From Candidatus Heimdallarchaeum endolithica (GTDB lineage: Archaea > Asgardarchaeota > Heimdallarchaeia > Heimdallarchaeales > Heimdallarchaeaceae), in contig CP084167.1 in assembly GCA_021513715.1 (NCBI GenBank), positions 768,001-832,000 on the forward strand: a DNA stretch of 64,000 bases. The letters run 5' to 3'. Made by a program: the position numbers and the translations under genes. Of this stretch, positions 11,103-46,059 are shown piece after piece. How positions within the stretch are numbered: the first letter of the stretch is position 1; each line of letters opens with the position of its first letter. The notes beneath the pieces were generated by a model. It did no database searches, was not told the DNA's origin, and worked only from the letters and a program-made list of their open reading frames with translations.

Positions 11103-12106
11103 TTTTTTTCTATTTTTATTTCATTTTTATTTAAAAAATTAAAAAAAAATAAGTTTTTTCAGCTTTTCAAACACTGGGAAATAATCTTATTCTTCTTCTA
11201 AGTATACTTGTTTGATTGTTTTCTCCTCTTCAGCAATTAAATGCTGTATTTTTTCATAGGGTGGAATAGTAAATATTGCTCCTTTTATTTTCTCTTTTTT
11301 CGTCCAATTATCTAATATTTCAATTAGATAATCTATTTCTGTTCTTACGATCTCTTTTGTCTTTAAGAGACCATAGACTTCAAATTCATAAATAATAAAT
11401 CTATCTCTTTTAGAATCGACTGTTCCATCTTCTAACATACTGGACTGACGTTTTACAACATTCGGAATCAGAAGTAAACCTTCAACATTTTTATTATGTT
11501 CAGTGCATAGAACAACTGCTTCTATGGGGATATTTGACGAAATACGCAGATTTTCTACACTTGTAACTAATGACTCAAATTGTATATTCTTACACAATTC
11601 TGCTAGTTTTTCTGCTTTGACGGTTATAGTATGTTCAGGTCCTAAGTGAAATTTATCGAACTGTAAATAATTAAGCATTGGAGCATTATCGAAAATATAC
11701 TCAAACTGGAAGAGAATATGATCTATTTCACCATCTAATTCACATCTAGGGCCTAATGTTGTTTTGTTGACAACTTTAAATCCATAAGGAGTAAGAATTT
11801 GTGTTATTTTTTCTAGTTCCTCTTCTTTGATAGGCATAAATCCTTTTACAAATTGCGCAAAATCATGTCGTTCTTGCTCATTTTCAAAAATAATTACTTT
11901 TCTAGAAAGTTTTTCTTTAGGTTTTTCTGTTGGAATGTATAGAGCAAATTTATATTTTAAACTCTCAATAATTTCATAAATTTTTGAACTATATGTTCTG
12001 TTATAGTATCTTTCTAATCCTTTTATAGCTAAAATAACAACTTTCTTTTGATAGTCACGTTCAAAGAATGAAGCAAGGTTTAAAATTGTTTCTTCTAAGT
12101 ATTCAT

Positions 12107-12869
12107 GGTAGTGTCTAGTTTTCTTCCGACAAAAATATTTGTGGGGACTCTAATAGTAAGATATGAAAACACAAAAACTATCTGCTCTTTTTAAGAGATG
12201 CAGAGTCCCCAAGAAAATAATAATAAAAGCTATTTATGAATATATTGGTTCAAAGAATGGGTTGAGGACAGTAGCATGGAAGAATGGTTTAACGCATCAA
12301 ACATTATGGTATTGGGTAAAGAAGTTCAGGCTCTTTAGGGAAAGTTTACATAGAGTTGTAGCAGAGAGAGGGGGAATACCAGAGATTATAGTAGTTGATG
12401 AAACAGAGATTAGGACCTCTCAAGGCTCAATATATCTGTGGTTCGCGTTAGATCCTTACAACAAGACTTTACTGGGTTTTAGTATTACTAAAGGACGGAG
12501 TAATCTTGAATGTTTACTAACTTTCCGTTATTGGTTCAAATGTTGGGGTTTTAAGCCCCGTATTATCGTTACAGATGCAGGGGTATGGTATCCTGTATTA
12601 CGTCGTCTAGGTATCAAAATCTCCGTTATCAAAGGTGGTTTACGCTCCTATATTGAACGTTTTAATGCTACTCTTAAGAGTTATCGTTGGTTTCATTCTA
12701 TTCTCCACTGCACTTGTCCTATCCGTGCCGTCTATGGTTCTACTCATCTTTCTGGTTTTCTTACTCTCTTTATGCTCCATTATAATTTCGTTCGTCCTCA
12801 TCAGAGCTTGGGACATCCTCCCCTTAGTTCCTTTTTACCTAGGAGGTGGTATAAAAACTAGACACTACC
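12107..12869 (+). mobile_element. IS6-family insertion sequence (763 bp)
   Basis: Perfect 16-bp TIRs GGTAGTGTCTAGTTTT (12107-12122, 12854-12869). Direct repeat AAGTATTCAT at 12097-12106 and 12870-12879, equivalent to an 8-bp AGTATTCA TSD with 17-bp TIRs. Confidence 0.95.
12163..12861 (+). CDS. IS6/IS240-type DDE transposase
   Basis: HTH (TLWYWV), VVDETE, YLWFALD, VTDAG, IERFN and HYNFVRPHQSL. 232 aa. Confidence 0.92.
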   Translation: MKTQKLSALFKRCRVPKKIIIKAIYEYIGSKNGLRTVAWKNGLTHQTLWYWVKKFRLFRESLHRVVAERGGIPEIIVVDETEIRTSQGSIYLWFALDPYNKTLLGFSITKGRSNLECLLTFRYWFKCWGFKPRIIVTDAGVWYPVLRRLGIKISVIKGGLRSYIERFNATLKSYRWFHSILHCTCPIRAVYGSTHLSGFLTLFMLHYNFVRPHQSLGHPPLSSFLPRRWYKN

Positions 12870-14371
12870 AAGTATTCATAGTCATAACTTGTAAGTGCAA
12901 TTAATTCTACTATTTGTGGGAAAAAGGTTTCATCAATTGAAAATCTAGGATTAGCTAAAACAGTTCGATTGATCAGAGTTCGTGTTAAATCTTTAATTTT
13001 TTCTCTATACTGGAAATTATCTGAAGTATTTGCTAAGCTCCAAATACCTGCTAAAATAAAATGAACTATATCAAAAGTTTGAGCAAAGTCAATTAATCTC
13101 CCCTCAAATTCAAATTCATTAATTTTCTCTAATAAACTTTCATTTATTTCAAAAAGAAAATCTTCGTCTAGTTTCGACGCAAAATCTGCAAGAAACTTTG
13201 AATAAAAAAGTAGAGAACCTGAAACAATAAATAGATTCTTACGTTTTATGAAATTTTGAATAAAGGATAAGACAGTTTTAAGTCCATTTTTTGCAAACGA
13301 AACAAAAACGGGTTTAGTTTCTTTGTCAGCTACTTCTCCTAAATGAAAAGCGAATGAAACCAATGCTGATGCATGAAGTTGAACAGCTTTAGGAATGAAT
13401 TCAACCTTGTACTGAAGTTGAGTTAATATAGTAGTAATTAAAACCATACTAAAGGAGTTGTTAACAACAGTTTCTAATAGAGCTGCACGAGAACCTACGA
13501 TTTTCTTATCTATGAAAGAACTTACTGTGTCAAGAATTTTAACTGTATAAAATTCCAAGAATTCACAAACTAAATCCCTAACATTACGTGATTTTGATTT
13601 ATCGCCAGAGTAAAGCAATATTTCTTCAGATGAAGCTCTCCCTAATTTTTTCCAAACAGCTACTGCAAGAATGGGAACCAATGGAATTATTTTAATGAGA
13701 GAAGTTATATCTTCTTCTCCATTTTCGATGTCAATTTTTTGAATAAGCTTGTAGAATTCATCAACTAGTTTTTCTAGGGATTTAACTTTTTTAATCCCAA
13801 AATAGGAAAAAACAGTCTTTGATGCATTTTTTGAGAGGAGATAGTCTAAAGTAGGATACCATTTCACAGTAGAAGCTAAAAAAAGGTGCCAGTAAGTAAA
13901 GTCAATAGGATACTTTTTTACTTCAAGTTTCTTTGCAGTTAGGATTATATCACTAACAATTTTTGAAAAATATGCATCTAGATGCTCATTTGTTTCTTCT
14001 TTAATTTCAAAATTATCAGAAAAGTTAGCGCTACAATTTAAACAACTAGTAGAAAAACTTTCGATTTTTTCTCCACATAAAGAACAAAATCTTTCAGGAC
14101 TAGCGAGAACAACCCCACAATTAGAACATAGTTGCCCTATTTCGAGTTTCTGATAGTTTGTTGAACCACAAGCTAAGCATTTTGAGACTCTATAAGCACT
14201 ATTCATAGAATTCAAGAATAGTGAAAGAGTTTGATATTTATACTTTACTAGTTTTTTTGCCATAAAATTGCAATTTACTCTCTATTTTTACTCCCTTAAG
14301 TTATATACTTTGTATTTCGCTTGTTTTCGCTTTAAAATTCTTTATATATCTTATTTAGTTTCTTTTTTCTA

Positions 14372-19539: not shown

Positions 19540-20516
19540 TTTCGCACCTCCAGTAAAAAATTAGAGTTGTTCCCATTCTTGTAAATTTTATTTGTAATAA
19601 AGAGAAAAGCTTCTTTTAGAGAACTTTTTTTGATGTTAATTTCATAGATGTCTTCGATAAATTTAGACGAAGAAATTACTTGCATAAGCTCTTGAACCTT
19701 TTCTCCTTTGAAGAAAAATGTTTGTTTAATTCGAATATAATCGGTTTTTTTGAGAGATTTGACTTCTTTATTAATGAAATCTTCGAATTCAGCATTTCTT
19801 TTTAAACATCCTACTTGTAGGACTTTATCTCCGATAAATTTATTAATTATATTCTCTATTTTTCCGAAAGCAACTACTTTGCCTTTGTCAATGATTAAAA
19901 CTTTTGAAGCTAGTGATTCTGCTACTTCCATTAAATGGGTGGTAAGAATAATAGTTATTCCTTCTTCTTTCAACTTTTTCAGATCTTCAGTTAATAAAGT
20001 TCTTGCTTCAATATCGAGTCCTGTAGTTGGTTCATCTAAGAATAGAAGTAATGGATCATTCATCAAAGACATAGCAATTGATAATTTCTTTTTCATACCT
20101 CCAGATAGTTTACTAGCAAGTTTATTTTGATGTTCAATCAAATTAAAATCAGTCAAAAATTTGTTTGCTTTTTCTTCAATTTGTGCTTTCTTTAATCCAT
20201 AAAGTTTTCCCATTAGAAAAATGTTCTCTTTTACTGTTAGATTGTCCCAAAGAAGATCTGCTTGTGGAACATAGCTGATACGTAATTTGTATTTACTCTC
20301 TAATAGCGACTCAACATTAATGTCAAAAATTCTAGCTGTTCCGCTATCTTGTTTAATTTGTCCTGTAAGAATCTTAAAGAGAGTTGTCTTTCCAGCACCG
20401 TTAGGTCCAATTAATGTAAACAATTCACCTTTTTTGACTTGGAAGGAAAGTTTACTTAGAATTGTTTTTCTGTTGTAAGTTTTTGTGAGATTTTTTACTT
20501 CTATAATATTTTCCAT
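19536..20516 (-). CDS. ABC-2 exporter ATP-binding protein
   Basis: GPNGAGKTT, LSGGM and LFLDEPTTGLD. Confidence 0.93.
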   Translation of the reverse strand: MENIIEVKNLTKTYNRKTILSKLSFQVKKGELFTLIGPNGAGKTTLFKILTGQIKQDSGTARIFDINVESLLESKYKLRISYVPQADLLWDNLTVKENIFLMGKLYGLKKAQIEEKANKFLTDFNLIEHQNKLASKLSGGMKKKLSIAMSLMNDPLLLFLDEPTTGLDIEARTLLTEDLKKLKEEGITIILTTHLMEVAESLASKVLIIDKGKVVAFGKIENIINKFIGDKVLQVGCLKRNAEFEDFINKEVKSLKKTDYIRIKQTFFFKGEKVQELMQVISSSKFIEDIYEINIKKSSLKEAFLFITNKIYKNGNNSNFLLEVRK

Positions 20517-30232: not shown

Positions 30233-30602
30233 GCTTTTTTTTTAATTATAACTCTTATAAAGTCTTATGTACCTTTGGTTTATAGTGAAAAAGCGATAAG
30301 AAAGGAAGATATGTTGATAGAAGGATTTTCTACTAGGTGTTTTCATTACATTGTGGAACCTTTATTTCAAAAGTCACATTCCCTTCTTCGTTTGTTACTA
30401 AATCGATAGTTCCATTTAATTGATAAAGCAGTTTTCTTGAGATCAATAAACCCACACTATTATGATTCTCTTTCTGAAAAGTCTCTTTAAATAATAACTG
30501 CACTATTTCGTCTTCTATTTTTGAACCATTGTTAGATATTTTTAAAACACAATTTTTGTTTCTTGAAAAAATTTGGATAAAAATTTTGGTTGCTTTTCCA
30601 TG

Positions 30603-30977
30603 AGTTGAAATTTTACGTAATTTCTTCAGGACTCTCCCCAACCAACCAACAAACTTAGCGAAAGTTGTGAAGACTGGATTAAGAGAACATGAAAGACACA
30701 GTCTTAATTAAGTTCTCCAAGGGGTTCATCTCCTTACCCCGGGCACTCATAACTCCCAAAGGGAAGCCCGGGTGTCGTAGGAATGAAACCTACGTCTTTA
30801 AGCATCTAGCTCAAGACACTAGATAAATGAGAATTAAATATATAAAGATAGCTGAAAAGTTGTGACACTCCCTAATATCTTGTATGTATTCTTTATTTAA
30901 GCAAATGTGTTTCAGGTTGTTATTGGTCTAATAACTCCACAAATTAAAAATTTAGTTTTTTACGTAAAAAAGTATCT
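30603..30977. mobile_element. 375-bp non-autonomous (MITE-like) insertion with a structured non-coding core
   Basis: CATG at both junctions (30599-30602, 30978-30981). 18-bp imperfect terminal IRs (13/18) with a perfect inner TTTTACGTAA. Removal restores the kinase frame exactly. Confidence 0.88.
30630..30825 (-). ncRNA. Candidate ~200-nt structured RNA inside the 375-bp element
   Basis: GC-richer than the flanks, with several stems (CCCGGGC/GCCCGGG, CGTAGG/CCTACG, AAGACTG/CAGTCTT, GAGAAC/GTTCTC, ATCTAG/CTAGAT). A TATA-like TTTATATATT lies at ~30837-30846 upstream on the minus strand. Strand and expression are unproven. Confidence 0.4.
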
Positions 30978-32399
30978 CATGCTTGATAGCATTAGAAATC
31001 ACATTATAAACGACAGAAATTAAGGTTCTATTTGCTTTTGCACAGCAGTTTCCTTAAATAATAAATTCTGTTTTAAATTGTTTTTTCAATTTATGTATTT
31101 CTTTTTTGAGATTGATAGAATAAGATGAAGCAACAAAGTCTTGATTAATCAATGCTGTAAGATTTTCAAGTTCAATGGAAGCAATATTTAAGTTCTCTTC
31201 TAAATTATCACAATATTTGTCATCCCTTTCCAGTTTGTATAATTCTAAAAAACCAATCATTGAAGTTATCCTATTAGTTAAATCATGTTTAATTATTGAA
31301 TAAATAGCTTGAGAAGTTTTATTTAGCTGTTCTACCTTATTCTTTGTTGTTATTAATTCATTTAAGATTAGATTGTATGGTTTCATTATTCCTTCTTTAA
31401 TCAAAATGTAGAAGAGAACTGATACACTCAAAAAAGCAAAAAAATGGCCGAAAACATTGGATATTCCGTAAACACTTACGTAGAAAGTAAAGAATAGTTC
31501 ACTTAGTGCCAAAAAGAATAAGTGAAAAAAGAAAAAAATACGAATGTTTTTTGCAAAAAAACTCCCTTTATAGACAAAGTAAGCCGATATAAGAAAAATA
31601 GATGAAACAAAATATTCACTAATTTTTTTGAAAACCGTTAATCCTACTCCTTCTATATAACATACAGGAAAATATCCTGCAAAAACTAAATATAGCATTA
31701 TTCCTGTAAATACTGTATAAAGAGAAACAAAAACTGTAGAGTTAATATCTCGTTTATAAAATATGAATAACAAAATTAGAGTTAAAGCATCAATATATCG
31801 TGCCAAGATCCATAAACAACTAGGTAAATTAGCATCATAACTTGGAAAAATATTCATTCCCTTGTACGCTAGTGTATGAAGGAATTCCACTAGACCAACA
31901 AAAATTTTTGATATCCCTAGAAGAACAACTAGATAAGAAGAAAGATAATTTTTACTAGCCAAAGCAATAACAAAAACAAAGATAAGTGTTACGATTATTG
32001 AAAATTCAATTAAAGTATGAAAAAAAAGGAAATTCAAGTTACTTAATAAAAATAATCCAATTAAAATGGAAAGAAATAAGACAAAAATAAGAATATATTT
32101 CAAAATTTAATTTAGTTTTATATTGTTAATGTTCAATGTGATACAATTGAAAACAATTTAATAAATTTGTTGCTAAAAAATCAGTTTATTGCTTAATTAT
32201 TTTTTCTTTTATTCACACATTACTTCTAATAAGGCCAGTCCTTTATTCCAATAAGTTAGCTTATTAGATAGGAGACATTATTAGAAAAGAGCCATTTAGG
32301 TCTCTTTAAACTATAAGTTTACTTAAATTCAATAAAAAAATTAATTCAAAGAAAGAAATTAAAATAACTTTATTTCACTTATTTTGAGTTATCTTTAAT

Positions 32400-44728: not shown

Positions 44729-45008
44729 CTCTTTGAATATACTATCTTTTTTTCATATTTTACTCATTATCAATTTTACTTGTCTATTAATTTAAAAACA
44801 TATCTCTTCTACTTATTAAGAAACAAAAATAAAGTTTTAAACCTCAAATAATAAAGTGTAAACATTTACAAAAAGATATTTTTCTTACTTTTTTTTGAAA
44901 CCTTACTTTGTGAATTACAAATATTATTCTAGCAAAATCAACCCAATAATTATTCAAATTAATAAAAACACTATTTTTTTGCTTAAGAAAATCCTTGAGA
45001 GCTATATT

Positions 45009-46012
45009 AAGCATGTCCAAAAATTAATTTTTATTAATGTGGGGGTTTATGTCGGAAGTATGAATTTCTTTCAGATCATAGACCCCCACAAAGCAAGAGA
45101 ATTCATAATCATTAATGAACCTTTCCTTAAGAAACTGGTGAAAGAGGAACCGAGAGAAAGCAAGAGAGGGAGAAAGAGAATAGCAGAAAGATGGGTGATA
45201 CTGGCTTTAGCAATCATTGCTAGAATAGAAGGGATAGCTTGGAGGAAGTTAGAGGAAAAGTTGTCTTTATGCGATTTTTTGATAGAAGAGGGGTGGATGA
45301 AGAAGATTCCTTCTAAATCTACTTTTCATGCAGTGTGGAGAGCGACAGAAAGTAAAATCTTAGAGCAGTGGATAATAGATTTAGGTAGGGAAATAGTGAG
45401 GAAAAAAGGCTTGAAAGCTATGGCAGTGGATAGTTCAGGGTTTAAAATCCGTCAAGCTTCTGTTTGGCGTTTTCTCAAATGGTCAAGAGGGACACTAAAG
45501 AAAACCTCTAAACTTTTCTGGAAGATACACCTTATAGTTGGTTTACCCTCTCGAGCTATAGTCTCTCTCGCTCATTCTGCTAGTAACACTCACGATAGTA
45601 AAGTCTTCGGTTTACTCTGGCAGAAACTTCCTTCTGCACTCTTGAGACCTTTCTTGCGATTTTATGGAGACTGTGCCTACTGGACAGAAAATATCGTTGG
45701 ACTTCTTAGCCAACATTCCTTTTTTCCTGTTATTCCCCCAAAAAGTAATGCTCGTTATCCCTCTCCTCCTCCCCTCGGACCAATAGTTCAAGCTCATCGT
45801 CTCTACCCTGGTCTGTATCGTCGTAATCATCATCCCGAGTATCGTAGTAGTATTGAACACGTCTTTGGTCTCCTTAAACTCTCTCTTCCCCCAATCCTTG
45901 ATCGTTTACCCTCCACCATCCTCTCTACCTTGTACAGTTCTCTTCTCTGTTACAACTACCTTTTACTCCTTCGGACCGTTTAGTAGGTGAAAAAGAATTT
46001 TTGGACATGCTT
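45009..46012 (+). mobile_element. IS5-family-like insertion sequence (1004 bp)
   Basis: Perfect 17-bp TIRs AAGCATGTCCAAAAATT (45009-45025, 45996-46012) and a 6-bp TSD TATATT (45003-45008, 46013-46018). Confidence 0.92.
45060..45983 (+). CDS. DDE transposase (DDE_Tnp_1, IS5-like)
   Basis: PSKST, AVDSSGF, WKIHL, HDS, GDCAY and YRSSIEHVF. The start must be inside the TIR, so ATG at 45060. Confidence 0.88.
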   Translation: MNFFQIIDPHKAREFIIINEPFLKKLVKEEPRESKRGRKRIAERWVILALAIIARIEGIAWRKLEEKLSLCDFLIEEGWMKKIPSKSTFHAVWRATESKILEQWIIDLGREIVRKKGLKAMAVDSSGFKIRQASVWRFLKWSRGTLKKTSKLFWKIHLIVGLPSRAIVSLAHSASNTHDSKVFGLLWQKLPSALLRPFLRFYGDCAYWTENIVGLLSQHSFFPVIPPKSNARYPSPPPLGPIVQAHRLYPGLYRRNHHPEYRSSIEHVFGLLKLSLPPILDRLPSTILSTLYSSLLCYNYLLLLRTV

Positions 46013-46059
46013 TATATTAACTTAAAATTTTCATTTTACAGAAAATTTATCTAGAAAAA

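Follow-up and report, generated by a model that had tools for sequence, protein, structure and literature searches.

We found that a 377-bp insert without an open reading frame, located at positions 30602 to 30978 of the 64,000-nucleotide stretch of DNA analyzed here (hereafter 'the window'; positions are those of the window unless 'genome' is stated), is best read as a non-autonomous element that derives from an Asgard TnpB transposon and has lost tnpB. This miniature element, or 'mini', appears to have kept the ends, a TATA box and the whole omega-RNA scaffold, and from sequence comparison we give this reading a probability of about 0.8. Its functional sense is the minus strand. The host replicon, from Candidatus Heimdallarchaeum endolithica, is a single contig of 3,326,783 bases with 31% GC, and its nearest relative is Ca. 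Heimdallarchaeum aukensis PM71. The initial annotation had proposed a deletion derivative of a larger transposon with a guide RNA moved in trans; this proposal is supported, except that the mini descends from a TnpB element and carries an omega-RNA rather than a bridge or seek RNA.

The further copies that the annotation expected were found by BLAST analysis: about 18 near-full copies in the host genome with 83–97% identity, several partial ones, and 11 matches at the DNA level in H. aukensis. There was no convincing DNA-level match among the other 59 relatives, and a metagenome scan gave six further minis and no parent element. The mini is a real, mobile and multicopy element that has been active recently. 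Its core has a GC content of 45%, against 25–28% in the surroundings, and folding of the insert beats that of shuffled sequences on both strands (z-scores of -3.1 for the plus and -2.3 for the minus strand). The insert and its coordinates, the GC-richer core, the minus-strand TATA box and the double occurrence of AAAGTTGTGA were all found as annotated. Across 27 copies the first 245 nt are conserved, and the adjoining spacer (30847–30959) is not, being shortened or replaced in several of them. Truncated minis retain the window-left end, and truncated TnpB copies mostly retain their 3' end, which points to the minus strand as the sense strand.

Some individual copies deserve mention. Many of them split host reading frames. 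In a partial copy at genome 314437–314815, the 3' part of the RNA is replaced, and an IS6-like end sequence lies nearby. A metagenome copy (L108:3018–3391, read on the minus strand) carries an inversion of its first 149 nt, with endpoints at the terminal AT and at the AT of the internal pseudoknot loop; this may be a true recombination or an assembly artefact. A TnpB element of the 452-aa type lies inside a mini at an internal C-AT-A (L017/L078; G001:C1:2602597 onward). A term search of the main text of PMC8813620 turned up neither TnpB nor IS607 nor miniature elements.

The boundaries follow from multicopy BLAST alignments, the length between the AT cores and orthologous empty sites. The insertion had been placed precisely at CATG, but the empty sites share AT only and CATG is not duplicated, which rules out a 4-bp CATG duplication. 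For the mini, a filled TATG...CATC corresponds to an empty TATC, and for related TnpB elements a filled CATG...CATA corresponds to an empty CATA; overall, empty sites read T-AT-C, T-AT-G, C-AT-A and G-AT, and filled sites TATG...CATC, TATG...TATG and CATG...CATA. Since AT is all that empty and filled sites have in common, the element comprises the 377 bp between an AT core at its left junction (30979–30980, 5' in the sense of the RNA) and another at its right junction (30600–30601, 3' in the sense of the RNA). AT was invariant in all 25 reconstructed targets; its presence at both ends fits either a 2-bp duplication or a 2-bp core, which sequence cannot tell apart. The four-base flanks are often unequal between the two ends. 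The target consensus, (c)C-AT-G(a/g), is palindromic, with G at +1 in 14 of 25 targets (p 2e-7). At the 5' junction, the first base of the mini equals the +1 base of the target in 19 of 25 copies (permutation p 7e-4), although the TnpB elements indicate that this base is not part of a duplication. On the minus strand, positions 30979–30982 read GCAT here (family consensus VCAT, often CCAT), and flank tallies make this a candidate transposon-adjacent motif.

Both annotated subterminal 10-mers are present, at 30960–30969 (left end) and 30611–30620 (right end, inside the RNA), but these inverted repeats lie 9 nt inside and not 8. The motif or its TTGTACAA variant also occurs on the resident TnpB elements, and in a circular form of the mini both 10-bp repeats would flank a central AT, at a distance of 9 nt on either side. 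Elsewhere in the window, 20121–20420 is the empty site of a 483-aa TnpB insertion carried by H. aukensis (L096), and 12102–12871 (IS6-like) and 45002–46017 (IS5-like) are multicopy elements with ends unrelated to those of the mini.

The insert interrupts a MASE3 sensor histidine kinase gene on the minus strand, with the 5' part at 30982–32103 and the 3' part (HATPase_c) at 30333–30599. Removal of 379 bp restores the kinase N-box (NAIKHGKA) in frame, as the annotation had claimed. The gene has a second lesion, however, and this separate in-frame TAA at 31054–31056 indicates that it has decayed beyond the insertion of the mini.

We next describe the RNA. The TnpB omega-RNA scaffold of about 219 nt occupies 30600–30818 on the minus strand, as delimited by matches of a covariance model (R1, below) to tnpB 3' ends over positions 1–221 and by a joint alignment. 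It begins with a 5' hairpin (30794–30818) that is homologous to the last tnpB codons (V-L-S-Q-W-L) in the model alignment and in tblastn analysis of the minis. An outer CCCGG/CCGGG stem (30738–30772) follows, with an inner hairpin and an unpaired pseudoknot loop, ATGAGT (30745–30750). A long helix (30722–30736 with 30626–30639) then closes the region 30626–30736 around stem-loops at 30682–30718 and 30642–30677; the region is supported by C-G/G-C pairs that compensate each other when minis are compared with tnpB elements. The terminal ACTCAT (30600–30605), the 3' strand of the pseudoknot, is invariant in 20 mini and tnpB sequences and can form six of six pairs with the loop; its last two bases are those of the right AT core. 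The counterpart in the resident 483-aa TnpB elements is the compensated pair ATGATT/AATCAT, and in the 445-aa family it is TCAAC/GTTGA or TCGAC/GTCGA. Such a pseudoknot is required for the activity of an IS607 TnpB (PMC10711439). The scaffold thus ends at the right end of the element in an invariant ACTCAT followed by variable flank, and by analogy with TnpB omega-RNAs the predicted guide would be read from the flanking kinase sequence at 30580–30599.

The joint alignment of minis and tnpB elements contains 19 cells changed on both sides, a value reached in none of 500 shuffles, although this signal comes from few group-level changes among related sequences. Two helices show compensatory pairs in it, and covariation among the minis alone did not rise above shuffles. 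G-U changes outnumber A-C changes by 19 to 7 in favor of the minus strand (p 0.03). Several structural claims of the initial annotation can be judged from these data. The stems it listed are present in the insert, but ATCTAG/CTAGAT is not conserved. It had also proposed a pseudoknot or switch in which AAGACTG/CAGTCTT forms a crossing pair; a pseudoknot is supported, but it is ATGAGT/ACTCAT, and homologues keep a local AGAC-TGT-GTCT hairpin in place of the crossing pair (ACAC-TGT-GTGT in tnpB elements). The noted resemblance of the loop segment TTATGAGT to the junction does exist, because the loop base-pairs with the mini's own end. The segment is invariant across differing targets, however, and is therefore not a target-recognition guide.

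To characterize the origin of this RNA, we used the model R1, which was built from minis alone, on 52 test loci. It matched 25 of them over the full 221 positions, all at the 3' ends of tnpB genes of the type with a rearranged RuvC-II and all in sense. The E-values, which are rough, were 1e-11 to 2e-3 in sister genera, 1e-7 to 2e-5 for the Heimdallarchaeum 483-aa genes and 8e-4 for the 504-aa element with filters off. There were no matches at the 445-aa TnpB, IS605-type or Thorarchaeota loci of the test set, and an Rfam scan of the insert matched no family. In sister genera, the motifs of the mini recur in unchanged order in the tnpB 3' regions of the 483/504-aa clade, which terminate in AACTCAT. 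The homology between the core of the mini and the 3'-end RNA of tnpB genes with a rearranged RuvC-II extends to both sequence and structure. The closest homologues of the RNA are in other genera and the RNAs of the resident TnpBs score only 19–35 bits, so that the cognate nuclease may be gone.

The end architecture of the mini is also found around three TnpB-only families in the host genome, of 483, 445–452 and 504 aa. A longer parent with the same ends had been anticipated, and these resident elements share the architecture, but no transposase with the mini's ends was found. The resident 483- and 504-aa TnpBs keep the catalytic D241, an alternative E399 and D433, with a glycine near the usual RuvC-II position; a RuvC-II rearrangement with an alternative E has been described (PMC10691335). 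A second mini of about 357 bp is 77–81% identical over its last 160 nt to the 3' end of the 445-aa element. It occurs at genome 699974–700330 and at least six more sites, with copies 98–99% identical, and it retains the 445-aa family's 3' RNA together with a promoter-like TTTAAATA. R1 also detects minis without tnpB in four further genomes, which belong to two genera; in these sister genera, clean deletions of the open reading frame have fused the left end and promoter directly to the RNA. Guide-only minis thus exist for two TnpB families, and in three genera. A sister TnpB clade (L185–L192, L204–L206) lacks the inverted left end; its 5' leader, about 330 nt long, is conserved and structured.

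The mini is mobile but encodes no protein, and we therefore asked which enzyme moves it. No transposase with the mini's ends was found in the host genome, in H. aukensis, among the neighbors of TnpB homologues or in viral contigs. On Heimdall and Thor contigs, no transposase lies in the neighborhood of the TnpB homologues, and viral contigs gave no TnpB relative and one unrelated pattern match. Neither Heimdallarchaeum genome yielded an IS607 TnpA, and the ends of the true IS607s of sister genera differ from those of the mini. The host genome has one tyrosine recombinase gene, and the 20-bp gap between the repeats does not suit a dif site. Four strong, canonical-scoring Cas1 matches occur in the host genome, none near the mini or the TnpB elements. 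Two stand-alone serine recombinases at genome 316731–317450 and 405384–406091 have an intact-looking catalytic motif and are not flanked by element ends. Of 30 genomes of the family, 28 contain such recombinases, and the same query gave no match outside the family. We regard host recombinases of this kind as the best candidates, at tentative strength and somewhat below even odds; the link is drawn from the 2-bp core and from family-level co-occurrence, an overlap that kinship alone could explain. In such a case, excision and insertion would take place at a symmetric 40-bp junction centered on AT. The two genes also share an upstream motif resembling TATTAC(G/A/T)TA.

We also considered the possibility that a DDE transposase acting in trans duplicates AT, with the same RNA, as in DDE-linked TnpB elements. 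The inverted ends and the palindromic target would suit such an enzyme, a 2-bp duplication and a 2-bp core look alike in sequence, and DDE-associated TnpBs have inverted terminal repeats (PMC10691335). However, the terminal bases are unequal between the ends and between families, and the IS630 domain is absent from both Heimdallarchaeum genomes. The resident IS5-, IS481-, IS6- and ISH3-like elements have ends unrelated to those of the mini; the annotation had correctly set the insert apart from nearby IS, as its ends match none of these four multicopy DDE families. The contig inverted between two AT cores would suit a conservative recombinase, unless it is an assembly artefact. A DDE mover therefore seems unlikely to us, and the same holds for an enzyme that is neither a serine recombinase nor a DDE or Y1 transposase.

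Next, we looked for signs that the RNA is used. The TATA box TTTATATA (30839–30846, minus strand) lies 20 nt upstream of the first hairpin of the RNA, and the gap is 20 nt in nine of nine cases, namely this mini and the eight tnpB-less minis of the four other genomes. The mini's own end reads TCAT followed by the guide, so that a nuclease using this RNA must not accept TCAT. Targets with T (TCAT) make up only 2 of 25 for the mini, against a background of 0.365 (p 0.001), and 1 of 18 for the 483/504-aa elements. For the 445-aa family and its mini, whose own ends read TGAT, 17 of 18 targets are TCAT. Insertion sites thus follow the nuclease family, which is what one would expect if the persistence of an insertion were decided by a cognate TnpB; the same pattern could also arise if the mover had targeting preferences specific to each family.

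A different reading is that the element derives from a TnpB transposon but that its RNA is a mere passenger in a MITE copied via its ends and guides no nuclease. Some copies at precise sites comprise no more than the final 89 nt of the RNA, one helix pair is broken in recent copies (7/20), and the RNAs of the resident TnpBs have diverged from that of the mini. Against this, the RNA and TATA box are conserved while the adjoining spacer is deleted or replaced, the gap to the TATA box is fixed across genera, and the target flanks show the TnpB-family-specific pattern described above. We therefore consider a passive relic improbable. For an RNA still in use, transcription would run from about 30820 through the right end into the flank, and the flank beyond that end would serve as the guide. 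A resident TnpB of the 504-aa or 483-aa type would bind this RNA in trans and cut the element-free allele, and repair from the filled copy would restore the element. By analogy with known systems, we think this cycle reasonably probable: cutting of the empty allele with recombination restoring the element has been demonstrated for IS200/IS605 (10.1101/2023.03.14.532601), and standalone omega-RNAs acting in trans have been documented (PMC10691335; 10.1101/2023.03.14.532601; PMC10432273). Because the mini kept a promoter and the full scaffold, it probably gains a new guide with every insertion.

Among known systems, the PATEs and standalone omega-RNAs of IS200/IS605 (10.1101/2023.03.14.532601; PMC10691335) resemble the mini in being protein-less, mobilized and TnpB-derived with an omega-RNA at the right end, and action in trans is predicted or shown for them. 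PATE ends, however, are hairpins read by Y1, whereas the mini has symmetric subterminal repeats, an AT core, a palindromic target and its own TATA box at a fixed distance from the RNA. An ordinary PATE with the same RNA, moved as single-stranded DNA by the Y1 (HUH) transposase of IS200/IS605, would account for the CAT that ends both flank and element, as at Y1 cleavage sites, and for truncated copies that retain one end, and the host genome does have a Y1 gene. An old mini copy (85%) at genome 925509–925884, inside an otherwise complete IS605, disrupts codon 2 of this sole gene, and younger copies (95–97%) spread later; no Y1 was found in H. aukensis. The IS605 at genome 925 kb, tried as a parent, is in fact a target, and the ends of the resident IS605 are unrelated to those of the mini. 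Given also that the mini's ends are loop-less palindromes with inverted repeats and that its target has dyad symmetry, a Y1 mover is quite improbable.

The Fanzor1 Spu-1 'ghost' elements (PMC10432273) likewise lack a nuclease gene and have an omega-RNA that overlaps the right end; no transposase was found in their genome, and they have inverted ends of about 30 nt and a CAT-type adjacent motif (CATA in Spu-1). They differ in being eukaryotic with an RNA of 75–90 nt, compared with the archaeal RNA of about 219 nt, and Fanzor1 RNAs lack a pseudoknot (PMC10711439), whereas one is predicted here. IS607 elements (PMC6188088; PMC10711439) share the 2-bp core without larger duplication, imperfect subterminal repeats, tandem motifs and junction bases built into an RNA pseudoknot; their core is GG, however, and not AT (25/25), the mini's repeats are equidistant from both ends, and no HTH-serine TnpA with matching ends was found. 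Like IS1341-type elements, the mini's parents encode TnpB alone; DDE-linked TnpB elements (PMC10691335) also have inverted ends, but for the mini's clade no linked transposase was found. The annotation had favored an IS1111/IS110-type element whose bridge or seek RNA guides recombination, which would share the subterminal inverted repeats, 2-bp core and structured RNA; this is largely refuted and very improbable, as the RNA, with its homology to tnpB 3' ends, is a TnpB scaffold, its loops do not vary with targets, and neither a DEDD recombinase nor a match to the IS110 domains PF01548 and PF02371 was found in the host genome and four relatives. An IStron or self-splicing intron was rejected as well, given the lack of an Rfam match, the mixed orientation (6 sense and 12 antisense to the longest frame) and unfit junction bases.

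Elements of this kind are already known as PATEs, standalone omega-RNAs and Fanzor ghosts; what is new is the symmetric ends, the AT core, the lack of a transposase that could be found and the Asgard host. Both complete genomes contain TnpB elements that have an AT core and symmetric ends, yet neither yielded a matching transposase, which raises the question of what mobilizes these elements. We may speculate, with considerable doubt, that several TnpB families of the Heimdallarchaeaceae and their guide-only minis form one superfamily without a transposase of its own, moved at the AT core by domesticated host serine recombinases, and that the minis act in trans as a genome-wide guide repertoire, a counterpart of Fanzor ghosts in archaea closely related to eukaryotes. 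The minis are active mutagens. In addition, for an Asgard-associated TnpB clade that is uncharacterized in the literature searched, the mini defines the scaffold, its boundary, the promoter and a likely adjacent motif, and thus makes the clade's nuclease directly testable.
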